Below are positions 1-35,401 of a stretch of DNA of 64,000 nucleotides, piece by piece. This DNA comes from Mobula hypostoma. Taxonomy: Eukaryota. The notes beneath the pieces were generated by a model, which was given only the letters and a program-made list of their open reading frames with translations, ran no database searches and was not told the origin of the DNA. Position 1 is the first letter of the stretch; each line of letters starts with the position of its first letter. The stretch covers positions 104,844,001 to 104,908,000 of the forward strand of contig NC_086097.1 of NCBI RefSeq assembly GCF_963921235.1, written 5' to 3'. Position numbers and translations under genes: made by a program.

Positions 1-3000
1 ATTGCCTGTAACATGTATCTCCCGTATATTGCCTGTAACACGTAACCCCTCCATTCAGTGCCTATAAAATGTACCCCCCCATGCAGTACCTGTAAAATGT
101 CCCCCCCATGCAGTACCTGTAAAATCTCCCCCCGTACAGAGTCTGTGAAATGTCCCCACACCTGTACAGTGCCTGTAAAATGTCTCTATACCTGTACAGT
201 GCCTGTAAAATGTCCCCCCGTACAGTGCTTGTAAAATTTTCCCAGTATAGTGCCTGTAAAATGTACTCCAGTACAGTGCCTATAAAATGTATTCCCCCAC
301 CCTCCCCATGGTGCCTGTAAAATGTCCCCATACACGTACAGTGCCTGAAAAAAGTCTCCCTGTACAGTGCCTCTTAGCTGTATCCCTCCGTACAGGGCCT
401 CTAAACTGTATCCCCACTGTACACCACCTGTAAAATTCACCCCCCAGTACAGTCCCTGTAAAATGTATTTCTCTCCCGTACAGTGCCTGTAAAATGTGTC
501 CCCCGTGCATTGCCTGTAACATGTATCTCCCCCTGTACAGTGCCTGAAGACATCCCCCCCATACAGTGCCTCTAAACTGTATCCCCACCTGAGAGTGCCT
601 GTAAAATGTTCCTGCCCGTACAGTGCCTGTAAAATGTATCCCCTGTACATTGCCTGTAACATGTAACCCCTCCATACAGTGCCTGTAAAATGTCCCCCCC
701 GTACACTGTGTCTAACACGTATTCCCCCCGTACAGTGTCTGTAAAATGACCCCCTGTACAGTGCCTGTAAAATGTCTTCTCCGTACAGTGCCTGTAAAAT
801 TTCTTCCCCGTACAGTGCCTGTAAAATGCATTGACCCTGTACAGTGCCTGTAAAATGCATTGACCCCGTATAGTGCTTGTAAAATGCATTCTCTTTGTAC
901 ACTGCCTGTAACATGTATACCCAGCTTACAGTGCCTGTAAAATGTCCCCCCGTGCAGTGCTTGTACAATGTGCTCCCATACAGTGCCTGTAACACGTATC
1001 CCCCGTACAGTGTCTGTGAAATGTCCCCACACCTGTACAGTGCCTGTAAAATGTCCCCACACCTGCACAGTGCCTGTAAAATGTCTCCCCGTACAGTACC
1101 TGTAAAATGTACCCCAGTACAATATCTACAAATGTATTCCCCCCCACACCTCCGTACACTGCCTGTAAAATGTCTCCCTGTACAGTGCCTCTAAACTGTA
1201 TCCCCACCTGGGAGTGCCTGTAAAATGTATCCGCCCGTACAGTGCCGGTAAAATGTATCCCCCCGTACATTGCCTGTAAAATATACCCCCCAGTATATTG
1301 CCTGTAAAATGTACCCCCCCCCCGTACAGTGCCTGTAAAATGCATTCCCCCCAGACAGTGCCTGTATAATGCATTCCCCTGTACGGTGCCTGTAAAATGC
1401 CTTGACCCCATACAGTGCTTGTAAAATGCATTCCCTTTGTACACTGCTTGTACCATGTATACCCTGCTTACAGTGCCTGTAAAATGTTCCCCTGTGCAGT
1501 ACTTGTAAAATGCATTCCCCTTGTACAGTGCCTGTAAAATGTATTCCTCCCCTGTACAGCGCCAGTAAAATGTGTTCCCCCCCCCACACACACTGCCTGT
1601 GACATGTATACCCTGCTTACAGTGCCTGTAAAATGTCCCCATACCTGTACAGTGCCTGTAAAACGTCTCCCTGTACAGTGTCTCCTAGCTGTATCCCCCT
1701 GTACAGGGCCTCTAAACTGTATCCCCCCTGTACACCCCCTGTAAAATTCCCCCCCCCGTACAGTCCCTGTAAAATATATTTCCCTCCCGTACAGTGCCTG
1801 TAAAATGTACCCCAGTACGGTACCTATAAAATGTATTGCCCCACCCCCCACATGGTGCATGTAAAATGTCCCCGTACCTGTACAGTGCCTCTTAGCTGTA
1901 TCCACCCGTACAGGGCCTCTAAACTGTATCCCCCCCCCCATACAGTTCCTGTAAAATGTATTTCCCTCCCGTACAGTGCCTGTAAAATGTGTCCCCCGTA
2001 CATTGCCTGTAACATGTATCTCCCCCGTACAGAGCCTGAAAACGTACCCCCCCATACAGTGCCTCTAAACTGTATCCCCACCTGAGAGTGCCTGTACAAT
2101 GTTCCTGCCTGTACAGTGCCTGTGAAATGTATCCCCCCCCTTACAGTACCTGTAAAATGTATCCCCCCTACAGTGCCTGTAAAATGTATTCCCCCATACA
2201 GTGCTTCTAAACTGTATCCCCACCTGAGAGTGCCTGTAAAATGTATCCGCCCGTACATTGCCTGTAAAATGTATCCCCCTGTACAGTACCTATAAAATGT
2301 ATCCCTCCTACAGTACCTGTAAAATGTATCCCCCCTACAGTTCCTGTAAAATGTATCCCCCCCTACAGTGCCTGTAAAATCTATCCCCCATACATTGCCT
2401 GTAAAATGACCCCCCCCGTACAGTGCCTGTAAAATGACCCTACGTACAGCGCCTGTAAAATGACCCCCTGTACAGTGCCTGTAAAATGACCCCCTGTACA
2501 GTGCCTGTAAAATGCATTCCCCCGAGACAGTGCCTGTATAATGCATTCCCCTGTACAGTGCCTGTAAAATGCCTTGACCCCATACAGTGCTTGAAAATGC
2601 ATTCCCTTTGTACACTGCCTGTACTATGTATACCCTGCTTACAGTGCCTGTAAAATGTTCCCCTGTGCAGTGCTTGTAAAATGCATTCCCCTTGAACAGC
2701 GCCTGTAAAATGTATTCCTCCCCTGTACAGCGCCAGTAAAATGTTACTCCCCCCCCCCCCACACTGCCTGTGCCATGTATACCCTGCTTACAGTGCCTGT
2801 AAAATGTTCCCTGGTACGGTACCAATAAAATGTATTCCCCCACCCCCCATACGGTGCCTGTAAAATGTCCCCATACCTGTACAGTGCCTGTAAAATGTCT
2901 CCCTGTACAGTGCCTCCTAGCTGTATCCCCCTGTACAGGGCCTCTAAACTGTATCCCCCCTGTACACCCCCTGTAAAATTCCCCCCCCGTACAATCCCTG

Positions 3001-3451
3001 TAAGATGTATTTCCCTCCCATACAGTGCCTGTAAAATGTATCTCCCCCTGTACAGTGCCTGAAAACGTCCCCCCCATACAGTGCCTCTAAACTGTATCCC
3101 CACCTGAGAGTGCCTGTAAAATGTCCCCCTCCCCCGTGCAGTACCTTTAAAATGCCCTCCCCATATGGTGCCTGTAAAATGTATGTCCCCCTGTACGGTG
3201 TCTGTAAAATGTCCCCATACCTGTACAGTGCCTGTAAAATGTCTCCACACTTGCACAGTGCCTGTAAAACCTCCCCTGTACAGTGCCTGTAAAATGTATT
3301 CCCTACCCCCCCCCATGTCCCGTGTGGTGCCTGTAAAATGTTTTGCCCCATACACCTCTTCATTGTCCCCCTCCCCGTACAGAACCTGTAAAATGTCCCC
3401 CTCCCCGTACAGTGCCTGTAAAATGTATCCCCCCGTACAGTGCCTGTAAAA
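1..3451. repeat. Satellite/minisatellite array, ~28-30 bp monomer TACAGTGCCTGTAAAATGT(AT)CCCCC
   Basis: Over 100 visible tandem copies, running off the left window edge, with higher-order duplicated blocks. Confidence 0.97.
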
Positions 3452-4602
3452 CAGCGGTGCCCAACCACCGGGCCGCAAAGCGCACGCTACCGGGCCGCGA
3501 GGAAACGATATGATTTGGCGATAGGAGTCAGCTGCACCTTTTCTCATTCCCTGTCGCGCACTGTTGAGCCATTACGCACGCGAGGCCATTACCCGCGCGT
3601 CATCCATGTCAGCGCGGGAAGAAGATCAACTCCTCGAACTTGCAAATGACGGGATGAAAAGTATGTTTGACATAACATCTCTGCCGGCATTCTGGATCAA
3701 AGTCAAGGCAAAATATCCTGAGAACGTTGCTTCCATTTCCAACATATCTCTGCAATGAATGCAACGAAAACTAAATTGCGGAATAGACTGGACATAAGGA
3801 ACCCCCTTCGAGTATCGCTGGTCTCCCTTCACCCCTCGATGGCACGGTCTTGTTGTAGGAAAACAAACACAGGGCTCCCACTGATTCAGCAATATTGATG
3901 CATTGCAATGATTTTATATGTTCAAACGGGGAAAATATGTGCTGTGTGTTTAATATCCAAACGTTACTTAAAATGTTATGATGCTATTGACTTCTATAAC
4001 CATATAACAATTACAGCACGGAAACAGGCCATATTGGCCCTTCTAGTTCATGCCGAACGCTACTCTCACCTAGCCCCGCCGACCTGCACTCAGCCCATAA
4101 CCCTCCGTTCCTTTCCCGTCCATATACCTATTCAATTTTTCTTTTAATGATAATAGCGAACCTGCCTCTACCACTTCTACTAGAAGTTCGTTCAACACTT
4201 ACTTCAAGCTCCCCTGATAATTGACTTATCACTATATTCATGTGAGGAAAATATGCGCTGTGTTTAATATTAAATTCATTAGATAAACCCTTTTAGAAAC
4301 GAAATTGAGTGTATTAGCCACTTATCACCGACATTCTGGTCGTGATTAACCCCACCCCCCGAACAAAATCGCCAAAAAGGATTTGCAGAGAAAAGAAATC
4401 GGCGGGTTACGACGCGCATGCGCACTGGTGCCCGCACAAGGCTTCATGGTCATTGTAGTCTTTCTCTGGGTAAACAATGTATTTGACTGCTACTCTTGTC
4501 CGTTGGCAACGCTACCCCCCCCCCCCCCCGGGTTGGCCGGTCTGCAAGAATATTGTCAATATTAAACCGGTCCGCAGTGCAAAAAATGGTTGGGGACCCC
4601 TG
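3452..4602 (+). mobile_element. Non-autonomous hAT (Charlie/Buster-like) DNA transposon
   Basis: Terminal inverted repeats (TIRs) CAGCGGTGCCCAACC / GGTTGGGGACCCCTG. Flanking 8-bp repeat CTGTAAAA (3444-3451, 4603-4610). Transposase C-terminal remnant EEDQLLELANDG..SLPAFWIKVKAKYPE. Confidence 0.88.
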
Positions 4603-4957
4603 CTGTAAAATGTATCTCCCTCCCCCCGTACAGTGCCTGTAAAATGTATCCCCCTGTACAGTGCCTGTAAAATGTTCCCCCCGTACAGTGCCTGTAAAAT
4701 GTTCCCCCTGTACAGTGCCTGTAAAATGTATCCCCGTACAGTGCCTGTAAAATGTCCCCTCCCCGTACAATGCCCTTACAATGTATTCCCCCTCCAGCGT
4801 ACAGTGCCTGTAAAATGTTCTCCCCCCCCCCAGTTCGGTGGCTATAAAATGTGCCCCCACCCCTATTATAGTGCAGAGCCTACTAAATGGATTCTCCCCC
4901 CCCGCCTTAATGTGCCTCTGTCCCCCTGTGCGGTGCCAATAACATGTCCCCCCCACC
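4603..4957. repeat. Continuation of the same satellite, degenerating into the Tc1 left end
   Basis: The same monomer resumes after the hAT insertion. Confidence 0.93.
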
Positions 4958-6501
4958 GAAAGTTTTCATGTTTATTGTTTTATGACTCTGACTCAAAGCG
5001 GATTAAATTTGACTTTTTTTTTGACATTGATCAACAGAAAAAGAGTCTTTCATGTCAGTGAAAAAACTCTTCAAAGTTATCTAAGTTAATTATGAATATA
5101 AAATACAAAACTACTGTTTGCATAAATATTCACCCCTTTCAAGTCGGTATTTAGTAGATGCATGTTTGGTAGCAATTGCAGCCTTGAGAGTGTGGATAGG
5201 TCTCTATTAGCTTTGCACATCTGAAAACTGCAATTTTCCTCTATTCTTCTTGATTAAACTGCTCAAGCTCTGTTAGATTGCATAGGGATTGTGAGTGAAC
5301 AGCCCTTTTCAACTCCAGCCACAAATTCTCAATTGAATCAAGGTCTAGACTCTGACTTGGCCACTCCAGGACACTAATTTTGTTGATTTTAAGCCTTTCC
5401 TTTTAGCTTTGGCTTTATATTTGGGGTCACTGCCTTGCTGGAAAACAAATTTTCTCCCAAGTCACAGTTCTCTTGCAGATTGCATCAGGTTTTCCTCCAG
5501 GAATTCCCTATCATTTGCTGCATTCATTTTGTCCTCTACCTTCACAAGCCTTCCAGGGTCTGCTGCCGTGAAGCATCCCCACACCATGCTTTATGGTAGG
5601 AATGGTGTGTTTTTGATGATGTGTGGTGTTTAGTCTGATGGCCAAAAAGCTTAATTTTGGTTTTATCAGACCGTAGAACCTTCTTCCAGCTGACTTCAGA
5701 GTCTCCACATTGCCTTCTTGCAAACTCTAGCTGAGTTTTCTGTGAGTTTTTTTCAACAGTGGCTTTCGCTTTGCCACTCTTCCATAAAGCTGTGGCAGGT
5801 GTAGCACCGGGGCAACATTTGTTGTATGCGCAGTCTCCCCCATCTCAGCCACTGAAGCTTGCTACTCCAACAGAGTTGTCATAGGTCACTTTGTGGCCTC
5901 CCTCACTAATCCCCTTCTTTCACGGTCACTCAGTTTTTGAGGATAGTCTGCTACGGGCAGATTTACGGCTATGCCATATTCTTTCCATTTCTGAATGATT
6001 GACTTAACTGTACTCCGAGGGATGTTCAGTGATTTGGAAATTTTCTTGTATCCATCTCTTGACGTGCTTTTCAACAACATTCTTGCTTAGTTGCTTCAAA
6101 TGTTCTTTTGTCGTCTTAGTGTAGTTTTTGCCAGGATACTGACTCACCAGCAGTTGGACCTTCCAGATACAGGTGTATTTTTACTACAATCAGTTGAAAC
6201 ACTTTGATTGCACACGGTGATCTCTATTTCAGTAATTACGTGACTTCTAAAATCAGTTGGTGGTACCAGTGATGATTTGGTGTGTCATACTAAAGGGAGT
6301 GAATACTTGTGCAATCAATTGTCTTGTGTTTATATTTGTAATTCATTTAGTTCACTTTGTAGAGATCTATTTTCACTTTGAGATTGAATCTTTTTCTGTT
6401 GATCAGCATCAAAAATACCAAATTAAATCCACTGATTCAATGTTGTAAAACAATAAAACATGAAATCTTCCAAAGGGGGTGAATACATTTTATAGGCACT
6501 G
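4930..6501 (-). mobile_element. Tc1-family transposon (IR/DR type), degenerate, ~1.57 kb
   Basis: ~200 bp long inverted repeats (about 4930-5140 vs 6290-6501), TA at 6502-6503. Transposase remnant GYKKISKSLNIPRSTVKSIIQKWKEYG...KLSDRERRGLVREATK (5886-6080), interrupted by stops and frameshifts. Confidence 0.92.
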
Positions 6502-7569
6502 TAGCTCAGTTTTAAGTGACTGACCTCTTGTATCTACGTCTGTGTTTGAAACTCGTCCACTCATGAAAACATCCTTCTGTACCCTTGTGGTATCGTATAT
6601 TTGAATAAAGTTACCTCACATTTATTTAACTCCAAGGACTATTGTCTCTCACCCCAGAATTACCCCGGTGAATCTATTCTGGACTGTCTCCTAATGTTAC
6701 TATTTTTAACTTTGAAGACAAAACAGTACATTCCAGACAAGGCCTCACCAGCACAATTACATCAAAGCCTCCCTATTTTTAAACTCAAACTACTTTGTGT
6801 TGAAGGCTAGAATGCTGTGTACTTTCTTAACTACTTATTGGATTCATGGACTAGATCCCTTTGTATATCACTCACTTGTGGGCTTTCTCTTTCAGATAAT
6901 CTAGTGTTTGATGTATCTTATGAAATGCATGATCTCACACCTCCCCAATGTTAAGGTCCATTTATAAACATTATACTCACTAAGTTAGTCCATCATTGCA
7001 GTACCATTTGAAAGTTTGGAAATCTTAGGTACAATTGCGGTGGTTCTCCAGTAGTTGCCTTTCTTTCTGGAAAAGACCCATTTATTTTCGACTTTGTGAG
7101 ACCGAATGGATTGAAAATTTGCTAATACACTTCATCTGATACAGAGGACATTTAATTTATACATCAGTGTCCCATGTGGCACCTTGTTAACTGCCTTTTA
7201 TAAATCCACACTATTTCAATAGTTTCCTTTATCAACTCTCCCTCAAAGAATATGATCAATTTTTCAAACAGGATTTACCATGTTGACTAGGTTTAATTAT
7301 ATTCTGTTTTCCTAGATGATTAGTTACTTTTTTGATTATTAACTTCAGAATGTTGCCCATAAACCTAACTGGCCTGTAGTTCCCTGCCTTCTGCCTTTCT
7401 CCTTCTCTGATATCTACCTGAAGTTTAGCAAGTTATCAATTAGCATTATCTTCCAAGGTGAATTTTAGATGCAAAATTTGTATTCAACACCACACTTGTA
7501 TAGTAGATGACAACACATAACCAGATCCTTCATACCAACGTGTCATGTCAACCAAGATGCCTTCCTGAG

Positions 7570-9877: not shown

Positions 9878-9989
9878 ATTTGAAATTGAAAAGAAGTTGA
9901 AAGCAGCAAAGAAAAAGGAAAAGAAAGAGAAAAAGAAGAAAATGGAGGAAGAGCGTGAGAAGAAGATGCAGCAGATTCAAGAGTTGCCG
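9878..9989 (+). CDS. RTF1: RTF1 internal coding exon (first in window; lysine-rich region)
   Basis: Acceptor ttggcag| and donor |gtatcc. Encodes (R)[37 protein letters not shown], matching vertebrate RTF1 [22 protein letters not shown] as recalled. Confidence 0.93.
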
Positions 9990-12563: not shown

Positions 12564-12794
12564 CAACAGGAATTCTGCAGATGCTGGAAATTCAAGCAAC
12601 ACACATCAAAGTTGCTGGTGAACTTAGCAGGCCAGGCAGCATCTGTAGGAAGAGGTGCAGTCGACGTTTCAGGCCGAGACCCTTCGTCTGAGTTAGTCCT
12701 GACGAAGGGTCTCGGCCTGAAACGTCGACTGCACCTCTTCCTACAGATGCTGCCTGGCCTGCTGCGTTCACCAGCAACTTTGATGTGTGTTGCT
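12564..12794. mobile_element. Near-perfect palindromic Penelope-derived insert within CR1
   Basis: Inverted arms of ~95 bp. Perfect 16-bp TSD CAAAGTATTCATTAAA (12548-12563, 12795-12810). Confidence 0.88.
12695..12730 (+). ncRNA. Putative minimal type I hammerhead ribozyme motif
   Basis: AGTC-CTGACGA-AGGgtctcggCCT-GAAAC-GTC-GACT: stem I AGTC/GACT, core boxes CUGANGA and GAAA, GUC triplet, loop-less stem III. Confidence 0.7.
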
Positions 12795-14324
12795 CAAAGT
12801 ATTCATTAAATACCTCTGCCATCTCCCCCAGTTCCATACACAGTTTTCTACTGTCACACTTGATTGGTCCTATTCTGTCACATCTTATCCTCTTGCTCTT
12901 CACGTACTTGTAGAATGCCCTAGGGTTTTCTTTAATCCTGCTCGCCAAGACCTTCTCATGGTCCCTTCTGGCTCTCCTCATTTTGTTCTTATGCTCCTTC
13001 CTGCTAGCCTTATAATCTTCTAGATCTCTATCTTTAGCTAGTTTTTGAACCTTTCATAAGCTTTTCTTTTTTTCTTGACTAGATTTTCAACAGTCTTTGT
13101 ATACCATGGTTCCTGTACCCTACCATCCTTTCCCTGTTTCATTAGAACGTACCTATGCAAAACGCCAAGCATGTATCCGCTGAACATTTGCCACATTTCT
13201 GCCGTACATTTTCCTGAGAACATCTGTTCCCAATTTATGCTTCCAAGTTCCTGTCTGATAGCTTCATATTTCCCCTTACTCCAATTAAACGCTTTCCAAA
13301 CTTGTTTGTTCCTATCCCTCTCAAGTGCTATGGTAAAGGAGATAGAATTGTGATCACTATCTCCAGAATGCTCTCCCATTGAGAGACTTGACATCTGACT
13401 AGGTTCATTTGGCAATACCAGATCAAGTACAGCCTCTCCTCTTGTAGGCTTATCTACATATTACGTTAGGTAACCATCCTGAACACACCTATCAAACTCC
13501 ACCCCATCTAAACCCCTTGCTCTTTGGAGATGCCAATTAGTATTTGGGAAATTAAAATCTCCCACCATGACAACCCTGTTATTATTACATCTTTCCAGAA
13601 TCTGTCTCCCTATCTGCTCCTCGATTTCCCTGTTACTATTGGGTGGTCTATATATTAAAAAAATCACGCAGTCGAGTTATTGACCCTTTCCTGTTTCTAA
13701 CTTCCACCTACAGAGACTCAGTAGACAATCCTTCCATGACTTCCTCCTTGTCTGCAGCCATGGCACTATCTCTGATCAGCAGAGCCATGCCTTCACTTCT
13801 TTTGCCTCCCTCCCTGTCCGTTCTGAAACATCTAAAGCATGGCACACCTGCCCCTGAGCCATCCAAGTCTGTGTAATGGCCACTGCATCATAACTCCAAA
13901 TACTGATCCACGCTCTAAGCTCATCCGCTTTGTTCATGATGCTTCTTGCATTAAAATACACACATCTCAAACCATCACTCGGAGCACATCCCTTCTCTGT
14001 CACCTGCCTATCCTCCCTCTCATAATTTCTCCAAGCTTTCTCTATTTGTGAGCCAACCACCCCTTCCTCTGTCTTCAGTTCGGTTCCCACCCCCTAGCAA
14101 TTCTAGTTTAAGCTCTCCCAATAGCCTTAGCAAATCTCCCTACCAGGATATTGGTTCCCCTCAGATTCAAGTACAACCCATCCTTTTTGTACAGGTCACG
14201 CCTGCCCCAAAAGAGGTCCCAATGATGCAGAAATCTGAATCCCTGCCCCCTGCTTCAATCTCCCGGTCATGCATTTATCTTCCACTTGGCTCTATTCTGA
14301 TTCTCACTGTCGCGTGGCACAGGC

Positions 14325-15669
14325 CTCAATGACTACAGATCGGTGGCATTGACCTCCCACATCATGAAGACCCTGGAGAGACTTGTTTTGGAGCTGCTCC
14401 AGCCTATGGTCAGGCCACACTTAGATCCCCTCCAGTTCGTCTACCAGTCCCGACTAGGAGTTGAGGATGCCATCGTCTTCCTGCTGAACCGTGTCTACGC
14501 CCACCTGGACAAGCCAGCGAGCACTGTGAGGGTCATGTTTTTTGATTTCTCCAGTGCGTTCAACACCATCCGCCCTGCTCTGCTGGGGGAGAAGCTGACA
14601 GCGATGCAGGTGGATGCTTCCCTGGTATCATGGATTCTTGATTACCTGACTGGCAGACCACAGTACGTGTGCTTGCAACACTGTGTGTCCCACAGAGTGA
14701 TCAGCAGCACTGGGGCTCCACAGGGGACTGTCTTGTCTCCCTTTCTCTTCACCATTTACACCTCGGACTTCAACTACTGCACAGAGTCTTGTCATCTTCA
14801 GAAGTTTTCGGATGACTCTGCTATAGTTGGATGCATCAGCAAGGAAGATGAGGCTGAGTACAGGACTACAGTAGGAAACTTTGTCACATGGTGTGAGCAG
14901 AATTATCTGCAGCTTAATGTGAAAAAGACTAAGGAGCTGGTGGTAGACCCGAGGAGAGCCAAGGTACCGGTGACCCCTCTTTCCATCCAGGGGGTCAGTG
15001 TGGACATGGTGGAGGATTACAAATACCTGGGGATACAGATTGACAATAAACTGGACTGGTCAAAGAACACTGAGGCTGTCTACAAGAAGGGTCAGAGCCG
15101 TCTCTATTTCCTGAGGAGACTGAGGTCCTTTAACATCTTCCGGACGATGCTGAGGATGTTCTATGAGTCTGTGGTGGCCAGTGCTATCATGTTTGCTGTT
15201 GTGTGCTGGGGCAGCAGGCTGAGAGTAACAGACACCAATAGAATCAACAAACCCATTCGTAAGGCCAGTGACGTTGTGGGGATGGAACTGGACTCTCTGA
15301 CGGTGATGTCTGAAAAGAGGATGCTGTCTAAGTTGCATGCCATCTTGGACAATGTCTCCCATCCACTACATAATGTACTGGGTGGGCACAGGAGTACATT
15401 CAGCCAGAGACTCATTCCACCGAGATGCAGCACTGAGCGTCATAGGAAGTCATTCCTGCCTGTGCCCATCAAACTTTACAACTCCTCCCTTGGAGGGTCA
15501 GACACCCTGAGCCAATAGGCTGGTCCTGGACTTATTTCATAATTTCCTGGCATAATGTACATACTACTATTTAACTATTTATGGTTCTATTACTATTTAT
15601 TATTTATGGATTAACTGTAACAAAAACCAATTTCCCCCGGGATTAATAAAGTATGACTGTGACTATGAT
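14325..15669 (+). mobile_element. 5'-truncated Rex1/Babar-type LINE with uninterrupted RT ORF (14343-15518), inserted in CR1
   Basis: YRSVALTSHIMK, DFSSAFNTI, GAPQGTVLSP, KFSDD motifs. 3' AATAAA followed by a short (TATGAC)-like tail. Confidence 0.9.
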
Positions 15670-19652: not shown

Positions 19653-20780
19653 TAAAATTTCCCACCAACCTGTGTGGTGGGAAATCATGCCTTTTCCTAC
19701 CCCTTTTAAATCTGTTTCCTCCAGTTTAGAGGCCATGACCATGGGAAAAAGATAGCTTTCATCTTAATCATGTCCCTCATGATGTTGTATTTGTCAAAGG
19801 TCACCCCTCAGCCTTCTATGCTTCCAGCCTTTCCAGTCTTGCCTTGTAACTCAACCCCTCCAGTCTTTGTGGTTTCCAGCTGTCACAAGCCATATATTAG
19901 CCGGATGTTGTCCTTGGCCATTACTTGCAGTCTTGGATTTTGGCCATAGGAACGGTACAAGTTAGCTTCATGTGAATACTTTTGTTGTTATAAAATATCA
20001 TCAAGCTGTTTAGTTGAACTAAGACACAAAGGATAATCAGTATTAACCTGAGCGCAGGTATAGATAGAACTACATTTTAAGTGCAACAGATGCTCACCGT
20101 ATCCTGTTAGCCCTGCAATGTCTAAATTAGGAGATCTATTTCCACTTGATAAACCAAGCTGATAGATTCATACCTTTTATCCAGCACTGTGGCCCTTCCA
20201 TTGTGATCCCTAAGTGACACCTGGCTACTGGCAGGTTGAATTCATTTAGTTGGAGTGGCAAGGTGGGAACAAGTGGACTGGAGTGTAAAACAAACATTGG
20301 TTCTGGAAACCTGTGTGTCGTTATCTCCTGTACCTTCCCAAATAATGAATTACTTTTAGAAGAAAGCACTAGTGAAGTAACAGAGTTGGGTTCATTCAGA
20401 TTTGGCAACTTAAAGCTTGCTTTTTAGTACATTATTATTGCTTGACCATTGCTATCAAGCCATGGGTTTATCTTTCAGTAGAGAATGAAGGAAGTCAGTG
20501 TTTCGTTGAAAATTGAGCTGCCAGCATATTGAAGCTGTAGTAGAATGTACTTATGCTGTGACAGTCTTGGAGTGATCTGCATTTAATGGACCACTTAATT
20601 AAAGCCCTACAGTTCTGCTAAAATGAGCGAGCTCCATCTTTGGTACCAAGGGAGTTCAACGTCAGGTAAAGATGGTGCATTTGTGGCTAGTCCTCGATTC
20701 ATTTAGACTTCCTGCTGAGGCTACCATTGTCATGGAAGTCAGCTTTCGGCTAATTTACTTTTTTCTATGTAGTATGTCTG

Positions 20781-21170
20781 TGTTAGAGTGACTTTTGAGT
20801 TTAGGTCATTTACATTTAGCAAATGGCTTTGGCTACCAGTCTTCTGTTCCTTGATAATGTATTGTGAATTCAGTTTGGGACAATGCATTCCTAAAAGCTG
20901 ACCCAGTCCAGACGCTGCTAGCATCTGTGGGATGGATGTGAGTCAGAAGGTGTGAAGTTTGTATGTAGCTTCAAAAGAAAGCATTGTCTATACTTTGTAA
21001 ATATGGAAATGTGCTTTGTGTTTACCAAATAAATATGGAGCCTCACGTTGGGCCAGCAGACCTTTCCTCTGAAAATGTCTCCATATGATGCCTGCTGTAT
21101 CTTGTTTTGTCGAATAAAGACTTTGTATCTACCAGTAACTCTCTCTGGCGATTTCATTCACACGACAACA
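20781..21170 (+). mobile_element. Solo LTR, 390 bp
   Basis: TGTT...AACA termini, AATAAA at ~21113, 5-bp TSD GTCTG (20776-20780, 21171-21175). Confidence 0.78.
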
Positions 21171-22660
21171 GTCTGCATTCAGTAGATACGGACAGTGACC
21201 TTGACAGCATTATGATCTTGCTGCTGAAATCTAAAAACAAATGTACATCAAACTAGTCTGTTCTCGTAAAAGTTTATTACTGTCTTGTGAATAAAGTTGA
21301 TTAAGTGTATCTTGTCTGCAAAAGCAAGAAGGATTGCATTAGTCTGCTTTTAATCATCAGGAAAGTAAAGGCATCCATGGCAATGCTATCAAGCATCATT
21401 ATTTACTATAGTCTGTTCAGTGCTATTGTGTTTGATTTCTGCCAGCATCACATAGTACTAGACTTTACTGCAGCTTTTGCCCAGGGATGAAGGGAGAGTG
21501 ACTTTCCTTGACTTCAGGGTGCAAGTAAAATTCAAGTCATGCAGACAGCTCTACACTGGCTGATGTCATTGTTTCATTTTATTTGTTTATTGAGATACAG
21601 CAAGGAATAGGCCCTTCGAGCCATGCTACCCACAATCCCCCAATTTCATCCTTGCCTAATCACTTGATTTACATGTTGGAATCTACCAACTGGTATATCT
21701 TCGGACTGTGGGAGGAAATCGGAGCACCCGGAGGAAAGCCACATGGTCAAAGGGAGAACACACAGTGGGGAGAATTGAATCCGGGTTGCTACGGTGCTGC
21801 CCACCTTGCACTAAGGATGATGTTTGGCTTTGAGGCCAATACTCGATATCTTAGGACGTCATATGTTCCGTGATTTAGATGTAACAAATTAAGTGACTAG
21901 ATATCATGCACAAGATGGCCAAAAATTTCATGCTGAAGGTGCTTGGCACTGACTATTGCTGATGATTGTGGCTCAGCAGTACTACATTATGTCAGTAACA
22001 TGATCATCACTGAATCCTCCACCACAAACTTAGATGCTCAAATGGTTCAACATTTATACTGATCTAGTCAATGTTACCTTGCTTACAAAAACAGGTCAGA
22101 GGTTTGGAATTTAGGTGTGAGGGGCGTGTTTTCTGACTACCCAAAGCCCTCCCTCCATCTGTGAGGTATGTCAGGAATATGGAATGCAACAAGACTTGGG
22201 AAGCTGCACCCTCAAAGACAGAATAGACCATTCTTGGAATCTATGATCTCCTGTGTAGCCTTATTGAACTTCATCTGCTTAGGAGGCCGCTGCAAGCCAC
22301 CTGATCTTGTGGCAGTAATCTTCTGATTACTTGTGGTCTTGGAGCTTGGCCATAGCATCTCCTGAATGTTTTTGTTGCTGCAAATGCCGAGTACATGCCA
22401 CACAGATTGAAAATGTATACTTGTTTCAGATACCAACATCTGGAGGCCCCTTACCGAATGAAAGGCAATGTAAGCAAGCATCATAGATCTGAAACTTTTT
22501 CTCTCCACAGATGCCAAGTGACCTGAATATTTCCAACATTTTTTGGTTTATTTCGGCCAGACAAAGATCCACATCAACTTGTTTCAGATATGGCTTTTGA
22601 AGCTGATGACACATGAAAGAGTGCAAATCCTGACCACACTGAAATGTTTTGTCACTGCAG

Positions 22661-22772
22661 GTGATGTCTCACAACAAGGAACGGAGATCAAGGAGGGATG
22701 AGAAACAGGACAAGAAGTCTCAGGCTATGGAGGAATTGAAAGCTGAAAGAGAGAAGAAGAAAAATAAAACGG
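22661..22772 (+). CDS. RTF1: RTF1 internal coding exon
   Basis: ctgcag| ... |gtaaca. Encodes [37 protein letters not shown]. Phase 0 start and phase 1 end fit the neighbouring exons. Confidence 0.95.
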
Positions 22773-22859
22773 GTAACAAACAGTATTGTGTAGGCAGATT
22801 TTCATCCCAGAACCATATTTCTATGCCCTGGAGTTCTCATGAGATTAAACTGTGGAATC

Positions 22860-23190
22860 TTTCTTCAATGGTCTACTGTCCTCTGCTATTAGATTCCTTC
22901 TCTGGCCCTTTACCACTTCTACCTATTACCTCCTAATTTCTTACTTTATCCTCACTCACATTCTTTCTCAGCTAGTCTCACCTATCAGCTGCCAGCTTGT
23001 ACTCTTTCCCCTCCCCCATTTTTTTTATTCTGGCTTCTGCCCCCTTCTTTTCTCGTCCTATTAAAGAGTCTCGCCTTTTAAGCATCAAGTGTTATTTCCT
23101 CCCCATTGATGCTGCCTGACTTGCTGAGTTCTGTCAACATTTTGTGTGTGGCTCAAGATTTTCAGCATCTGCAGAATCTATTTTCTTTAT
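22860..23190 (+). mobile_element. Degenerate Penelope 3' fragment
   Basis: Resembles 17490-17770 and ends in ...GATGCTGCCTGACTTGCTGAGTT...TTTCAGCATCTGCAG. Confidence 0.65.
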
Positions 23191-23799
23191 AACAAACTGG
23201 AATCTTTTTAGTCTTAATGACTTGGAGTGTGTTGTTGCAAATTACTATGTCAATTATGAGAATTCATCTCTTGGCTCATTCTACTTGCTCATTTCCATGT
23301 ACTCAGTCTCCCTTTGCTTCTTATGCAATTGACTTGTACCCGTCTCCCACTCTACATGCTCTCCATCTAATCTTTTGTTTCCTCAATGGATTTAGATGGC
23401 AAAGATGGTAGTAAATTAAGCGGAAGATGAGGGAAGTTGAGACTGAGATTTCTCACTGAAGGTGAGAAGGTGTTTTGTGCAGAAAAGGCAATGTTGAAGA
23501 TGTCTAGGTTTAGGAAGTGTTGAGACCAGGAGGAATGCTAAGCTGCCTAGCAGCAGTTCGTGGGTAAGGAATATTGAAGGTAATCTTTTAGTCTGCTATG
23601 TGTTTCCATAGTGATTTTCTTCAGTGTTGTTGATGGCTTGAAAATATGAGAAACAAGGTATTCCCACTCTATGTTCTTAATCACAGAAAGTGTATTAGTG
23701 CAATAGCCTGTGTTGTAAGCAAATTGACCGAACAGACATGAAGGGATATGTAAAGAAAGCCAATAATTTTTGTGGTGTGAAGAATGTTCAGTTAGTTGA

Positions 23800-24810
23800 T
23801 GTGCTCCATGAAGTCTTTTGATAAGTTTCCAAATGGTAATTGAAAAGAGACCTGGCCAATTGGATACACTTGTCTTGACACTAAGAAGCAGCAGTAGTAG
23901 TAGACATTTGTTTTTCAGTTCGGGGGCATAAGTGGTGTGCCCCAGCAGTCAGTGTTGGACCCATTGCTATTTATCATGTATATCAATGACTTGGATGAGA
24001 GTATGCAAGGCAGGGTTAGTAAGTTTGCAGATGATGCTAGAAAGCATGGTGAAGATAAATGTCAAAATTTGCTGGGCATCTTGATCAATAAGGTAAGTGG
24101 GCCAAGGCATGGAAAATAGAGTTTGATTTGGCTATACAAGGTGCTTCATTTTGGGAAGACAAATCATGATGAGGTATTCATAGTAAACAGAAGAGCCCCG
24201 GAGAATGTTATAGAAAAGTGATATCCCTGAAGGTGCTGTTGCAGGTAGATGGTGATGAAGAAGACTTTTGACATCACTTAGGGCCTTGATTCTAGAAGTT
24301 AGGATGTTGTGTTTGTAGGCTGCAATTTGAATACTGTGTTACTCACCTATGAGAAAAATGGCATTAAGCTAGAAAGAGTGCAGAGAGATTTATCAGGATA
24401 TTGCTGGGATTTAAGGCACTGAGTTATGGACATGTTGAGCAGGTTGGAACTTTTTTACATTGGAGAGAGTGAAATACGAGTGAACTTGAAGAAAGATATA
24501 CCTTTTGAGGCTGAATGCACGCATTCTTTTTCACAGGGCTGGAATTCAAGAATGAGAGAACTTAGGTTTAAGATATACTGCTTAATAGGAACTTGAGGGG
24601 AAATGAATCATCAGTGTATGGAATGAGCTGCCAAAGGAAGTGATTAAGGCAGGTACATTAACGACATCTGAAAGGTACTTGGACAGGTACATATATGGAT
24701 AGGAAAGGTTTGGAGGGACATAGGACAAATGGGGCTAAATTAGTTTGGAATGTTGGTAGGCATAAACCAGTTAGGCTGAAGGACCTATTTCCTTGCTGTA
24801 TTACTCTGGA
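23800..24810 (+). mobile_element. Old degenerate CR1 fragment
   Basis: PQQSVLDPLLFIMYINDLD..KFADD remnant and a CR1-like 3' end. Confidence 0.75.
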
Positions 24811-25202
24811 AGTGGCATTAGAAAATTTAAAGACTTTCAAGTATGACAGATGGCATGGTTGGTGCAAAAGGAAGATTATTGCAACTGTCTTATATTGTAT
24901 AACAATATTCAGAGACACAAGAGACTTATGGTAGCTGGAAATCTGCAGCAGCTGCTTGAATGGGTGCCATAGAAAGTGTCAGAGTAAAGTTAGAGATTTG
25001 TGTATGTGTTGGTGATTCAAGACTAAGCTGGAAGGGTAAAATTTTTACCTAACTAAGTGGGCACATGTGGGCAAAGCATTTGGATTGAAGGCTGTGTCAC
25101 AGAATAATACAGCACAGGAACAACCTCTTAGCCCTGCTACATATTGGTTATAGGAATGAACAAGTGGCTTGATTGAGGAGTGAGTTGTCTTATTTCTTTC
25201 AG

Positions 25203-25338
25203 CTGAATTATTGGCCAGGAAGCAGCCTCTAAAAGCCAGTGAGGTTTATTCTGACGATGAAGAAGAGGAAGAGGAGGAGCAGTCTAGTGTGAAGAGCGAT
25301 CGGTCCTCTAGGTCTTCGTCTTCTGATGAAGAGGAAGA
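25203..25338 (+). CDS. RTF1: RTF1 internal coding exon (acidic/serine-rich; not in the ORF track)
   Basis: tttcag| ... |gtaagt. Encodes (A)[44 protein letters not shown](E). Confidence 0.95.
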
Positions 25339-26280
25339 GTAAGTTCTTATATTAGTGGAGCTATGGCCTGTCGCCTTGACTGTCTTTAGATAACTGGGAT
25401 TTTATTGCTTTTAATTTTCAGCAAAAAAAAGTAAAAATGGAATAAATCCTGCTCTTTGCCTTAAGTTTTAGAATAATAGGCCAAAGACATCTTTGATCAG
25501 CTATAAAGCAGATACCAACAGAGCCAGCGGTCTGGGTTAAGAAAGAACTTAAGTATTTCAGTAGTTGTCCAGCTACTGCATTCAAACCTGCTTTCCTTGG
25601 GCATGATGTAAAGAAATAAATGTAAATATGTGGGGATGAGATGGATGATGGATGATACATTGAAATAGTTGAATGCTTTGCTTGGGACAAAGCATCAGGG
25701 ATTTGATGAGGAAATGGGCTGCAAAAATGTTGAAGTATGGACAATTAAACTTCCAAGTTACAGAAGAAGTGGTTTCTTAGCAGCTGTGTCTTGAGGGAGG
25801 AATAAGATATCATTTGACAATGCCCTTGTGATTGGGGCTGTACAAAATAAGGATAATGAAGAATTGGGCATAAATATAATGGAGGAAGTTTATTTGCAGT
25901 GTAATGTGTTTGGTTAGGATGAAATGAATTTGGATAGAGGGGATTAAAAGCAAGGTTTGGTACCGATCAGCAGTGGCCGGTAGAAGAAAGAAGCAGATGT
26001 GTTTGGATGTTGACATCAGTAATTTGAGTTTGTGGGGGAGTATCAATGGGTATGATTGGACAGGGCATTACACAACAGGAGATGCCGTGGTTTAATTTAG
26101 TAAGAGTTACTCTGTCGCCACAGTTGTTTGGTTTGGATAGGTGGTGAGGAAGCTTCAGTAAAGGCAAGAATTAGGTAAATTCCAATACAACAGCAGCAAG
26201 CATGTGGATTTTACTTCAGCAGCAAGTGGAGGTACAAATTTTCCAGAAAATTCTCAGTGGGTGAATGAATTGAATTGACT

Positions 26281-26971
26281 GTGCGGGAGGAGAAGATGGC
26301 GGCGCGACGCAGCTCACAGCGGCCACTCCAGTGGTGATGTCTGTTGTTTGTCAAGTTGGGTGCCGTGCACAATCCTGATTTGACGGCGATAGATGTGAGA
26401 GCACGGAGGAACATCTGGTGAGACTTCTGAAATGCCTGCTTCACTACTGCTGCTACCATGTGGTCCAGAATCTCCAGAGGGGAAGGTCCCAAGTCCTCGG
26501 CTTTGCTTGTTGCTCGGCGGCCTTGGCAGAGTTGAAGCGCTCGGCAGAGGACGGTGCTCGGAGATGCTGTGTTGGAGGGGCTGGTCGGAGGCTCGAAGTT
26601 TGCAGACGTACTCAGAGTCCGCTGCGGTCAGGTGCTTCCAATGATGCTGCATCAGCAAGTTGGCGGTGCTTGGAGTTTCACGGCAGGGAGAGTTTCTCCC
26701 CTTCTGCCGCCTGCGTGAGACGATGAGTATCGGGACTTTGAGGCTTTTTTTTACCGTGCCCATGGTCTGCTCTTTATCGAATTATGGTATTGCTTTGCAC
26801 TGTTGTAACTATATGTTATAATTATGTGGTTTTGTCAGTTTTAGTCTTGGTTCGTCCTGTGTTTTTTTTTGTGATATCATTCTCGAGGAACATTGTTTCA
26901 TTTTTTAATACATGCATATCTCAATGACAATAAACGAGGACTAAGTGTCCTCATAATCTAATCTAATCTAA
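26281..26971 (+). mobile_element. Non-coding ~690 bp retroposon (copy 1): GC-rich AAGATGGCGG head, (TAATC)n tail
   Basis: Highly similar to 54885-55546. AATAAA followed by CTAATCTAATCTAA tail. Confidence 0.75.
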
Positions 26972-27259
26972 TTTCATACATCCTTCACATACGTGAGTAA
27001 AAATCTTTACATTACATCTCCATCTAAATGTGCAATGTCCACTCATAGTAATTTATAATAGAGCAGTCAATGTAATATAGAGTACACTCAAATCAGCGTG
27101 AGTTCATCAGTCTGATGTGGCCTGGTGGAAAAAGCTGTCCCGGAGCCTGTTGGTCCAGGGTTTTATGCTGCGGTATTGCTTCCTGTATGGTAGCAGCTGG
27201 AATAGATTGTGGTTGGGATGGCTTGGGTCCCCAATGATCCTACACCTGTCCTTGTAAAT

Positions 27260-29857
27260 AAGACCATAAGACAAAGGAGCAGAAGTAGGCCATTCGGCCC
27301 ATCGAGTCTGCTCCGCCATTTTATCATGAGCTGATCCATTCTCCTATTTACTCCCACTCCCCCGCCTTCTCACCATAACCTTTGATGCCCTGGCTACTCA
27401 GATACCTATCAATCTCTGCCTTAAATACACCCAATGACTTGGCCTCCACTGCTGCCCGTGGGAACAAATTCCATAGATTCACCACCCTCTGACTAAAAAA
27501 ATTTCTTTGCATTTTTGTTCTGAATCCACTCTGTCCATGCCTTTTAACATTTGAAATGTTTCTATGAGGTCTCCCCTCATTCTTCTAAACTCCAAGGAAT
27601 ACAGTCCAAGAGTGGACAAACGTTCCTCATATGTTAACCCTCTCATTCCCGGAATCATTCTAGTGAATCTTCTCTGTACCCTCTCCAACGTCAGCACATC
27701 CTTTCTTAAATAAGGAGACCAAAACTGCCCACAGTACTCCAAGTGAGGTCTCACCAGTGCCTTATAGAGCCTCAACATCACATCCCTGCTCCTATACTCT
27801 ATTCCTCTAGAAATGAATGCCAACATTACATTCGCCTTCTTCATTACTGACTCAGCCTGGAGGTTAACTTTAAGGGTATCCTGTACGAGGACTCCCAAGT
27901 CCCGTTGCATCTCAGAACTTTGAATTCTTTCCACATTTAAATAATAGTCTGCCCGTTTATTTTCTCTGCCAAAGTGCATAACCATACACTTTCCAACATT
28001 GTACTTCATTTGCCACTTCTCTGCCCATTCTTCCAATCTATCCAAGTCTCTCTGCAGACTCTCCGTTTCCTCAGCACTACCAGCCCCTCCACCTATCTTC
28101 GTATCGTCAGCAAACTTAGCCACAAAGCCATTCCATAATCCAAATCGTCGATGTTCAGTGTAAAAACAAGCGGCCCCAACACTGATCCCTGTGGAACACC
28201 ACTGGTAATCGGCAGCCAACCAGAATAGGATCCCTTTATTCCCACTCTGTTTCCTGCCAATCAGCCAACGCTCTATCCACGTATGTAACTTTCCCGTAAT
28301 TCCAAGGGCTCTTATCTTGTTAAGTAGCTTCATGTGTGGCACCTTGTCAAAGGCCTTCTGAAAATCCAAATATACAACATCCACTGCATCTCTCTTGTCT
28401 AGCCTACTGGTAATTTCATCAAAAAATTGTAATAAGTTTGTCAGGCAGGAATTTCCTTTAAGGAATCCATGCTGAGTTCTGCCTATCTTGTCATATGCCT
28501 CCAGGTACTCTGTAACCTCATCCTTGACAATCGACTCCAACAACTTCCCAACCACCGACGTCAAGCTAACAGGTCTATAATTTCCTTTTTGCTTCCTTGC
28601 CCCCTTCTTAAATAGCGGAGTGACATTTGCAATCTTCCAGTCTTCTGGAACCATGCCAGAATCTATTGACTTTTGAAAGATCATCGCTAATGCCTCCGCA
28701 ATCTCCACAGCTACTTCCTTCAGAACACGAGGGTGCATTCCATCTGGTTCCGGAGATTTATCTACCTTTAGCCTATTCAGCTTCCTGAGTACTTTCTCTG
28801 TCGTAATTGTGACTGCGCTCACTTCTCTTCCCTGCCACCCTTGAGTGTCCGGTATACTGCTGATGTCTTCCTCAGTGAAGACTGATGCAAAATACTCGTT
28901 CAGTTTCTCTGCCATCTCCTTATCTCCCATTACAATTTCTCCAGCATCATTTTCTATCGGCCCTATATCTACTCTCATCTGTCTTTTACTCTTTATATAC
29001 TTGAAAAAGCTTTTAGTATCCTCTTGGATATTATTTGCTAGCTTCCTTTCATAGTTAATCTTTTTTCTCTTAATGACCTTCTTGGTTTCCTTTTGTAAAG
29101 TTTTAAAAACTTCCCAATCCTCTGTCTTCCCACTAATTTTTGCTTCCTTGTATGCCCTCTCCTTTGCTTTAACTTTGGCTTTGACTTCTCTTGTCAACCA
29201 CGGTTGCATCCTTTTTCCACTCGAAAATTTCTTCTTTTTTGGAATATACCAGTCTTGCACATTCCTCATTTCTTGCATAAACTCCAGCCACTGCTGCTCT
29301 GCCGTCTTTCCCGCCAGTGTCCCTTTCCAGTCAACTTTGGCCAGTTCCTCTCTCATGCCACTGTAATTTCCTTTACTCCACTGAAATACCGACACATCAG
29401 ATTTCAGCTTCTCTTTTTCTAATTTCACAGTGAACTCAATCATGTTATGATCACTGCCTCCTAAGGGTTCCTTCACCTCAATCTCTCTAATCACCTCTGG
29501 TTCATTACACAATACTCAATCCAGTACAGCCGATCCCCTAGTGGGCTCAACAACAAGTTGTTCTTAAAAGCCATCTCGCAGACATTCTACAAATTCTCTG
29601 TCTTGAGATCCAGTGCTGATCTGATTTTCCCAATCTACTTGCATGTTAAAATCCCCCACAATTATCATAACACTGCCCTTCTGACAAACCTTTTCTGTTT
29701 CCAGTTGTAATTTGAAGTCCACATCCCTGCAGCTGTTTGGAGGCCTATAAATAACTGCCATCAGGGTCCTTTTACCCCTGCTATTTCTTAGCTCAACCCA
29801 TAAAGATTCTGCACCTTCCGATCCTATATCACCTCTTTCTAATGATTTAATATCATT
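27260..29857 (-). mobile_element. CR1 LINE, 5'-truncated (ORF2 endonuclease end + RT)
   Basis: ORF 27479-29512: [29 protein letters not shown]. Internal frameshifted segment and a deletion near 27520. Confidence 0.93.
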
Positions 29858-30410
29858 AGAATGTCCTGAATCATGGGAAGTTCACAACTACAGATGTGCT
29901 GGGCTGTCTGCACCACTCTTTGCAGAATCCTGCTATTAAGGGAGGGTACAGTTCCCATATCAGGCAGTGATGCAGTCTGTCAGGATGTTCCCAATTGTGC
30001 CCCTGTAGAATGTTCTTAGGATTTTGGGGTCCACACCAAACTTCCTCAACCATCTGACGTGAAAGAGGCACTGTTGTGCCTTTTTCACCACACAGCTCGT
30101 GTGTACAGACCACGTGAGGTCCTCGGTGATGTGCATGCCAAGGAACTTGAAGCTGTTTACCCTCTCAACCCGAACCCCAGATGGAAAGATGAAATATGGA
30201 AATGGCTAGTTATAAACATTGCTATAGAGTACTTTGGTAATGAGAGGATCTTGCATCTGAGGATCTGTAAGCCTAACATCAGTAGGGAAATTATTGTGGA
30301 AAAATAAGAGACATAATGATCACTTGGAAAAGCAGGAACTCAGCAGATGCAACCAGTATGGCTTTATCAAGTGACCAGTCAGCTTGAATTTTTAAAGAAG
30401 TAATATCGTA

Positions 30411-31579
30411 CAGGTTTCCCCCGCCATCCGAAGGTAGAGCGTTCCTATGAAACGGTTTGTAAGCCGAAATGTCGTAAAGCGAAGAAGCAATTACCATTTA
30501 TTTATATAGGAAAATTTTGTGAGCGTTTGCAGACCCAAAAATAACCTACCAAATCATGCCAAATAACACATAAATCCTAAAATAACAGTAACATATAGTA
30601 AAAGCAGGAATGATATGATAAATACACAGCCTATATAAAGTAGAAATACTTTTCCACAATCATTACTGAACTGTTCTTCAGAGCGAAAATCTCACGCAGG
30701 CGCCGTCGGCAGAAAATCTCACGCAAGCGCTGTTGGCAAGAACACTCTCTCCAATAACCTTTAAGCAATGAAGCTGCCAAATCATACCAAATAACACGTA
30801 AAAATACACAGCCGAAATAAAGTAGAAATAATGTATGTACACTTGCGGGAATTGGGAAGATAGCCTGCCGAGCACACTGATGATGGTGTGTTAGACTGAG
30901 TCGTCGCAGGTTGGGATGGTGCAGTGGCCCCCACCCTCCAGGCCGCCGAGCGATACATTGCTGCAAAGCATGCAGGAATGCAGCGGTAGCCGGGAGGCAC
31001 ACAGCACATCTTCAAGAAAAATGCCGAAATAAACAAGCTAATTAATTAGGTGCCGCCTGGCATGTAATTGTCGGCTCAGATCAGTGCCGATTTCCGATTG
31101 CGTAGTCTCTGATCTCGGCCGACAATTAGCTTTTTCATTATTCATTCGGTTTCGATTGTTATCCTTTCCTCTTCCAGATGCATCAGCTCTTCATCTATCA
31201 GTTCTTGGTCATGGGATGCCAAAACCTCTTCAACATCATCTTCATCAGCTTCCACAAGCCAAACTCACGTTGTCCTTACTTCGTTCACCACGATCGAAAT
31301 GCTTAATTATGTCTAGTTTTACGCTAAGTGTAACACTCTTACAAGCTCTTTCAGGCTTTTCCGATACCTTAGAACTCATCTTGCAAACGACTGCTCGCAG
31401 GCACCTGTTTAAGCAATGCCATTCTGAATCGGGGGTGGGGGGGAGCGACTGCCTTTTATCGCGAGCTGATTTTTTTCCTAACAGTGAAAACACCTGAAAG
31501 CGAAAACAGGGTAGTAATGTAGGTCTTTCGTAACAGTGAGGTTTCGTAAAGCAAACGTTCGAAAAGTGGGGGACACCTG
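30411..31579 (-). mobile_element. Tigger/pogo-like internally deleted DNA transposon (copy 1)
   Basis: TA|CAGGTTTCCCCC ... GGGGGACACCTG|TA. CENP-B-like HTH remnant KSVTLSVKLDIIKHFDRGE. Confidence 0.88.
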
Positions 31580-32221
31580 TATTGGCAAGGCAGTGCAATA
31601 GATGTGATTTATATGGATTTACAAGAGTTGAAGGTCTTCAATGAGATACCATGGGAGACTGGTTAAAAGGTTAGAGCCTATGGGATCCAGGACAAGTTGG
31701 CAAATTAGGTCCTTATTGGCATGGTAATAGGAGATAAGGTGATGGGGGACTGTTTTTTTAATGATTGGAATCCTGTGATAGGTGGTGTGTCCTGGGATCA
31801 CTGGTGGAACCTTTGCTTTTTGAAATATGGCTAGATGTGGATTTTCAGATTGTGATTGGCAAGTTCTCAGATGACAGATTGGTAGCTTTGATGGTGTGAA
31901 AGGCAGTGTTTGGCTACAGGGTGGCATTGATATGTTGGTGAAATGGGCTGAGATACAGCAGATGAAATTTAATCCAGATTAGTGTGGGGTGATGAAATTT
32001 GGAATACAAAGGAGGCTGGGACGTATTATCATGAATGGGAAGGTCTTTGGGAATATTAAAAACAGATGGACCTTGGAGTATGCAACTTCAAAGATGCTTG
32101 AAGATGACTGTTCAAGTTGATGATATGGTTGAGAAGGCATATGTGATTCTGGCCTTCATTAGTCAGGGCCATTGAATATAAGAGTAGAGTGCCTGTATTC
32201 AAACTTTATAAGACAAGCCAA

Positions 32222-34482: not shown

Positions 34483-35401
34483 AAAACATTTATCAGACAT
34501 AAGCTGGAGTAATATGTGCAGTTCTAGTTACAGGTTCGGTCTGCTTTCCATGTAATGGCGGTGGTTGAGAGGTTTATTTTGTCTTATGTAAAACTGAGGG
34601 CTTTAGATGGGTAGACTGCAGGAAACATTTTCTTGATTATAAATGAATTAAGTTAGAGGAACATTCAAGAGGGACATCATCCAAAGAATGTTGTGTGCAT
34701 CACTGGAAAGTGTGGGGAAGCACTGGTCTAATGATCACTTAAATTGCCTAGAGATGGAAGGCTACATACCAAGTGCTGTGGAAAACAAGATTAATATGGA
34801 TGGGTGCCCATGTGGTGGTGTGTATGGTCTGGCTCTGAGGGAGATGTACAATATTACAAAAGGAACTCAAGTCTGCTTATTAGAGAATGAGAAGCAAGAG
34901 CAGACCCTTGCCTGCACAATCATGCATTGAGATCATGGTGGTCACGTAATTCTGCCATTTTCCTGCACTATTCACACAGCCTTTGATTCCCTTGATGTCT
35001 GGAAATCTGTTGATCTCTGGATGAACATGGCCTCTTGTCCTTTGGGGGAAAATCTCCATGAATTATCTTTCTCCACCAAATTTCTCCTCTTATGACTGGC
35101 CTTACCCAGTACTGCGAAAAAGAGTACTGATGTCTATTTGACTTTGTGCAGTCATCATTGAGAACTGGTGATGATGATTTTAATTAAAAAAATTTTGAAC
35201 TTGGCAATTGGGAGTTGGTCAGAATAACTTTTGATTTCAATAAATTTCTGTTGAATTCTAATCCTGTCTGTGTTTTCATGCATGCAGTGAATTTATAGAT
35301 TATGGTTAAAAGCAGGGCCCTTGACTAATTTGACGTTCTTTGCTGGTGGCAAAATTGTTACCTTTTTGCAAGGTTAATTTTGGCTATTTATATTTGTGCA
35401 G

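Follow-up and report, generated by a model that had tools for sequence, protein, structure and literature searches.

We describe a tandem array that occupies one end of a dead Tc1 transposon in Mobula hypostoma (NCBI RefSeq assembly GCF_963921235.1, contig NC_086097.1, positions 104,844,001 to 104,908,000 of the forward strand; these 64,000 nucleotides are referred to below as the window, and all coordinates are positions within it). The window opens inside the array, which by a core-anchored scan comprises 129 or more units, each some 28 bp long, is split by a likely hAT-type insertion, and runs directly into what remains of the inverted repeat of a Tc1 element of the inverted repeat/direct repeat (IR/DR) type; its unit matches TA plus the outer ~27 bp of that same element. 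A preliminary description, made from the sequence alone, had proposed that a multi-kb array was built from the terminal repeat of the adjoining Tc1, and both Tandem Repeats Finder (TRF) and the 129-unit scan show this array to be real. It had also given array and element together the extent 1-6503; the array lies there, but it is not continuous, since an insert at 3452-4602, flanked by an 8-bp duplication, divides it. We read the array as a minisatellite that arose from the tip of the attached element and probably has no function, a reading to which we give a probability of roughly 0.7.

TRF reports one long tract at 3-3303 (period 28-29, 115.7 copies, 71% matches) and further blocks at 3364-3451 and 4621-4826. 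The core-anchored scan scores 118 units in 25-3451 and 11 in 4595-4958, every one of them on the plus strand, with about four additional decayed units hidden in the long gaps of its list. The earlier estimate of more than 100 copies therefore holds, and unit count and length are lower bounds, as the outer edge of the array lies beyond the left side of the window. The main block (1-3451, plus strand) runs off that edge and consists of head-to-tail units of 25-38 bp, with a mean of 28.7 bp that falls within the 10-60 bp expected of a minisatellite. The proximal block (4603-4958, plus strand) comprises 11 scored units, the last three of which (at 4834, 4872 and 4929) are decayed and share with the Tc1 end an A at position 11.

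Units differ from one another by a mean of 28% and from the core consensus by a mean of 10.6%; the 123 units shorter than 40 bp include 114 distinct sequences. The main block contains irregular duplications of blocks of 7-10 units each, and the recurring blocks lie at a distance of 4-11%. The array is old and has been irregularly recopied. An assembly artefact was rejected on the diversity of the units, the lack of any exact repeat as long as 80 nt, and the reproduction of the junction by contigs (below). A coding role was likewise rejected, the long frames in the array presumably being read-throughs of the repeat. No second array of the unit was found in the remaining 59 kb of the window.

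The Tc1 element spans approximately 4929-6501 and is followed by a TA target-site dinucleotide at 6502-6503 (plus strand); contigs carrying other copies match it through 6503 and then diverge, and on the opposite side the flank has been replaced by the array. Its inverted repeats measure 213 bp each, within the ~200-250 bp typical of IR/DR elements, and agree at 160 of 206 aligned positions. The repeat at the arrayed end (4929-5141, plus strand) has an inner direct-repeat core at 5127 and a decayed outer direct repeat at 4929-4958, which is the fourth of the element's direct repeats; the intact repeat at the other, 5' end (6291-6501, minus strand) has its inner core at 6305 and its outer core at 6485, both on the minus strand, and that end is single, not arrayed. 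Between the repeats lies a broken transposase gene on the minus strand (approximate limits 5140-6100), in pieces interrupted by several stops and frame changes, as seen in a three-frame translation. Given this minus-strand orientation of the transposase, it is the 3' end of the element that is arrayed; the preliminary description called it the left terminus, which is correct for the window but not for the element. The pieces match the Pfam domains HTH_SB (E value 4.5e-13, above the cut-off) and DDE_3 (E value 0.0016, below the cut-off), so that a DNA-binding domain of the paired-like kind, as well as a DD34E catalytic domain, can be recognised. At what we take to be the DD34E motif, this copy no longer has the second D, whose site lies 104 nt from the E, a base fewer than 34 intervening codons would need; other copies carry one base more there. 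A sequence search of the PDB with the HTH piece returned no match, and a homolog search with one transposase piece returned a single broken relative, from which the Tc1 family was not named. Pattern scans for unit dimers and element ends gave no hits in metagenome, prokaryote-genome and viral contigs, collections that are not expected to contain DNA of this animal and whose silence carries no weight.

The typical unit aligns to the reverse complement of 6474-6503, which is the intact end of the element together with its TA, with a score of 42. Across 20,000 shuffles the mean score was 10.4 and the maximum 28, and the best score elsewhere in the window was 25: the unit is homologous to this transposon segment beyond chance, and the shuffle comparison, which the preliminary description had named as a way to refute the origin of the unit, leaves that origin standing. 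The sequence that it gave for the reverse complement is correct, and the unit at 272-298, which it singled out, matches the Tc1 end at 96% over 27 nt. The monomer that it quoted does resemble the end, but is closer to it than a typical unit is: after the core, TATTC is found in 8 of 129 units and TATC in 32 of 129. Nor does every unit carry TA/CAGTG, as had been stated, given that TACAGTG is kept in 59/129 units and TA in 102/129. The best-kept part of the unit is positions 1-18, that is, TA and the tip (108-123 of 129 units, position 11 excepted), a conservation partly due to the anchoring of the scan there and to slippage of the C-run in the remainder. Positions 19-24 match in 27-85 of the 129 units and are the least conserved besides position 11 and the last two positions, and none of the 129 retains the motif that the three intact direct repeats share.

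At about 4960 the array gives way to the remainder of the Tc1 inverted repeat, as previously noted. It occupies the position of the missing outer repeat in the same orientation, and on this inner side it stands in place of the segment from which it derives. The bases at 4945-4965, between the last unit and the remainder of the inverted repeat, look like the end of a unit and not like their counterparts in the other terminus of the element.

The distribution of variants along the array indicates a direction of growth. Position 11 is an A in the intact Tc1 end, in 3/3 of the element-adjacent units and in 5/126 of the others (Fisher p = 1.6e-4, for units that are not independent), and the three element-adjacent units carry 4-5 mismatches in the core, where the mean is 1.9. 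The A in the edge units and its absence from 121/126 others point to birth of the array at this locus. The two bases preceding the unit are TG in 43, CG in 39 and CA in 19 of 128 cases. When units at equivalent places in recurring blocks are paired, 11 of the 19 pairs that include CG flip to TG or CA, compared with 56 differences in 846 core sites; the flips are CG-TG in eight cases, CG-CA in three and TG-CA in none. Since CG flips to TG and CA, which never flip to each other, CG is likely the original dinucleotide, and the palindrome CTG-TA-CAG formed in many units is, on these sequence patterns, likely a product of CpG decay and not a footprint.

We compared the segment 4830-7240, which lies outside the body of the array, with contigs from four of 24 listed sequencing runs (X1, X5, X10 and X12; organisms A-D) at 80% likeness. 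The family is very abundant: the Tc1 body was matched by 20,000-35,000 contigs per run, and the summed contig depth over it, which is not a copy number, was about four orders above that of the flank. Contigs leaving the element directly behind the TA at 6503 numbered 522, 486, 285 and 526 in the four runs, and their flanks are unrelated, agreeing at 0.36-0.37 with an AT-rich majority. The ends of this Tc1 family are, as a rule, not arrayed, in a comparison that follows the majority line and in which a minority of arrayed ends could be hidden. A foldback-type element with repeat-filled ends was rejected, as the other end is single and, in each run, unrelated flanks follow hundreds of ends of the family.

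The junction between array and element (4830-5042) was found on one contig in X1, with 0 differences, and on one in X5; X1 possibly stems from the very source of the window and does not count as independent support. In the X5 contig, 214 nt contain 10 gaps as well as 8 differences, compared with 8 differences in 730 nt of flank. The junction is thus common to organisms A and B. In X12, one contig with 35 differences reaches across 60 nt of the element end and 501 nt of flank, which makes the insertion older than a split of about 6%. The right-end flank contigs of X10 and X5 stop at 6603 and 6511, respectively, and neither bridges the right end. Runs X10 and X12 gave no cover of 4830-4910, which is not evidence that the array is absent from organisms C and D. 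Position, orientation, the gradient at position 11 and the single junction contig per organism all argue that the end of the Tc1 was amplified in place, as the preliminary description had supposed.

The 1,151-bp insert that interrupts the array (3452-4602, plus strand) sits within one unit, so the array is older than the insert. It is flanked by identical 8-bp target-site duplications (3444-3451 and 4603-4610, plus strand) and bounded by short terminal inverted repeats matching at 13 of 15 positions. Both features are those of hAT elements, and on its sequence the insert is likely a deletion derivative of the hAT type. A Pfam scan of four pieces of the insert found no match. At 67%, one piece is similar to the C-terminus (residues 584-625) of P0003, a protein of 627 aa; this protein carries a precomputed assignment to PF14291, yet gave no match in the local Pfam scan, and PF14291 is a domain that we take to be linked to hAT. 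Nested in the insert is a dispersed-repeat fragment (3997-4198, minus strand), presumably CR1, which is 83% identical to 42370-42571, the end of a reverse-transcriptase-like element. The term "newly arisen", which the preliminary description had offered for the satellite, does not fit an array whose units differ by 28%, which later received an insert with its own nested repeat fragment, and whose junction is shared with organism B.

The same description had placed the array in an intron of RTF1, and this location is likely. The first likely RTF1 exon in the window (9878-9989, plus strand) lies downstream of the array and begins mid-codon after AG, and a scan for charged stretches found no exon-like piece earlier than 9878 in the window; on this evidence the array probably sits in an intron with its upstream exon beyond the window. 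Exon-like pieces on the plus strand at about 9.9, 22.7, 25.2, 35.4 and 61.9 kb fit RTF1: the piece at ~35.4 kb has a Plus-3 domain match (E value 5e-15), and we take the gene to be RTF1 from this match and from our recognition of the others. Directly after the likely Plus-3 exon, at 35594-35727, is a short tandem repeat of 20-29 bp, apparently derived from the 3' end of the exon and its splice donor, which may represent another duplication in place within this gene. The window is otherwise rich in reverse-transcriptase relics. An open 405-aa reverse-transcriptase frame with RVT_1 and ALKBH8_N matches (14301-15518, plus strand) lies inside an older element of the opposite strand and is possibly a young long interspersed nuclear element. 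A 94-bp inverted repeat at 12595-12794, with 98% complementarity and 12 nt between its arms, resembles a short interspersed nuclear element (SINE). Two related repeat copies at 30534-31376 and 32409-33577, 90-93% alike in ungapped blocks and about 2 kb apart, are intronic.

We favor an origin of the array by chance local duplication of the Tc1 tip, followed by repeated unequal exchange. An IR/DR Tc1 copy would have entered the intron at a TA, after which a stretch of about 28 bp ending in the C-run of the end would have been duplicated, probably through mispairing with a C-rich flank that ended in CG before the TA. An A-to-G change at position 11 in an early unit would then have spread outward with the growing array, as the original tip and its neighbors decayed beside the element; blocks of 7-10 units would have been recopied, and a hAT-like element would have inserted into one unit, the relative order of these last two events not being fixed by the data. 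Such an origin accords with what the literature describes, as far as the consulted parts of it go: minisatellites derived from transposable elements occur commonly and may be seeded by any part of an element (PMC9659126, PMC3389668), no part was conclusively found to be preferred as the seed in a review (PMC9659126), and it is established that a minisatellite can arise from a segment with short direct repeats on both sides (PMC3389668). Several observations weigh against it. The boundary of the unit falls within ~1-3 bases of the transposase cleavage site, a closeness not expected of chance slippage. The likeness to a unit end of the bases between the last unit and the inverted repeat is unexplained. 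The comparison of loose ends shows the majority line alone and could mask a minority of arrayed ends. Finally, the proposed microhomology with a C-rich flank is inferred rather than observed, the original flank being gone or beyond the window.

The near coincidence of unit boundary and cleavage site is what suggests an active part for the transposase. An abortive nick or break at the Tc1 end could have been repaired by templated duplication, and each new unit would have recreated a nickable TA/CAG site for as long as the family was active. The better keeping of positions 1-18, with the TA and the tip, could be read in the same way, although scan anchoring and C-run slippage elsewhere in the unit account for part of it. 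In the sources consulted, transposase nicking is described as damaging the extreme ends of IR/DR elements such as Tdr1 (PMC5224488), and transposase breaks have been proposed as starters of tandem repeats (PMC6947457). However, hundreds of other ends per run lead into unrelated flanks, and the direct-repeat core motif is found in 0/129 units. We consider a transposase-triggered birth, the main rival of our reading, unlikely if conceivable, and hold the corresponding idea of a runaway expansion of the cleavage site, fed by the family's own transposase after a nick at the Tc1 end, to be just as unlikely. The enzyme figures differently in the suggestion of the preliminary description that the array serves as a transposase sink or a set of alternative ends. 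TACAGTG does survive in 59 units and TA in 102, and tandem repeats within the ends of Galileo are reported to contain secondary transposase sites (PMC3573991). Yet the motif of the three intact direct repeats is in none of the units, and positions 19-24 match in as few as 27 and at most 85 of them. In Sleeping Beauty, according to the portion of PMC7827188 consulted, the core is the target of the PAI subdomain, inner repeats bind better than outer ones, small changes to the repeats reduce activity, binding begins at the inner repeats and cleavage requires the full IR/DR. Here the units closest to the inner repeat are the most decayed, a 1.15-kb insert parts most units from it, and the local transposase is dead; a retained role of this kind thus seems, from the sequence, very improbable.

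Two further explanations concern the origin of the unit itself. The array could be one of many in a dispersed satellite family derived from the end of this Tc1 family, or could have been copied in from elsewhere. The bulk unit does differ from the other end of the element at position 11 (121/129 units do not have A), and the abundance of the Tc1 family makes independent births plausible. In opposition to this, the element-adjacent units retain the A of the end, the other 59 kb of the window hold no second array, and the junction lies on a single contig per run, which together make a dispersed family improbable. The unit junction might instead be the relic of a tail-to-head double insertion or an excision footprint, with the sequence CTG-TA-CAG. 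CTG precedes TA in 33/102 units, and double insertion is reported, in the text consulted, to yield tandem dimers (PMC5932611). But CCG (33) and CCA (13) are together as common, the partner flips run CG-TG and CG-CA and never TG-CA, with CG the likely ancestor, and in a dimer the repeated stretch would be the entire element instead of 28 bp; we find this explanation scarcely credible. Amplification of the attached tip by duplication and unequal exchange remains the reading that we prefer.

The systems that resemble the array most closely, again as described in the available parts of the cited papers, differ from it in what was amplified and where. Like the array, TIR-220 of the Tetris element in Drosophila virilis is a kb-size, satellite-like repeat from the terminal inverted repeat (TIR) of a DNA transposon (PMC4079207). 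That repeat, however, is an internal one of ~220 bp, which a foldback element already carried in tandem and which became amplified in many places, whereas the unit here, seen at one locus, consists of the outermost 28 bp alone, TA included. The Xstir/Xmix repeats of Xenopus likewise represent a vertebrate tandem repeat from part of a DNA transposon (listed under "TIR" in a table of PMC9659126 and as an amplified internal segment in PMC6004289). Xmix is a T2/Kolobok miniature inverted-repeat transposable element with the repeat between intact ends, which makes the repeat mobile; here the repeat replaces the tip, and the ends of other copies are generally unarrayed. SINE-derived satellites of scaled reptiles (PMC10702118) and human minisatellites derived from transposable elements (PMC3389668) share with the array the amplification in place of a short segment of one element copy, as well as heterogeneous units and multi-unit duplication, from a SINE or Alu source where ours is a Tc1 terminus.

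With IR/DR Tc1 elements of the Sleeping Beauty type (PMC7827188, PMC5224488), the source element shares inverted repeats of ~213 bp, outer and inner direct repeats, a TA flank, and the HTH_SB and DDE_3 domains. It differs in belonging to another family by its end sequence, in being dead here, and in having one outer repeat expanded into an array. The ends of Galileo also carry tandem copies that vary independently between the two ends, but this element is of the P-element superfamily and has 2-3 copies of ~210 bp inside its end, with secondary binding sites reported (PMC3573991), compared with more than 100 copies of the tip in the present case, in which the presumed binding core is eroded. 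We found no report of an array of an IR/DR Tc1 outer direct repeat plus TA in the open-access literature, and subscription papers or supplements may contain one. The array thus represents a known kind of satellite origin, whose sole new part is the arraying of an IR/DR outer repeat together with its TA.

Read in this way, the locus provides a natural record of the birth of a satellite: the source element is still attached, the direction of spread is visible, and a relative order of events is given by the later insert and by the junction in a relative. Were duplications enriched at the cleavage site across the family, this would be direct support for the proposal that transposase breaks start tandem repeats. 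And should the expansion have been fed by the enzyme after all, IR/DR ends would be minisatellite birthplaces driven by the enzyme, and duplications should be seen to pile up at the terminal TA across this very abundant family.

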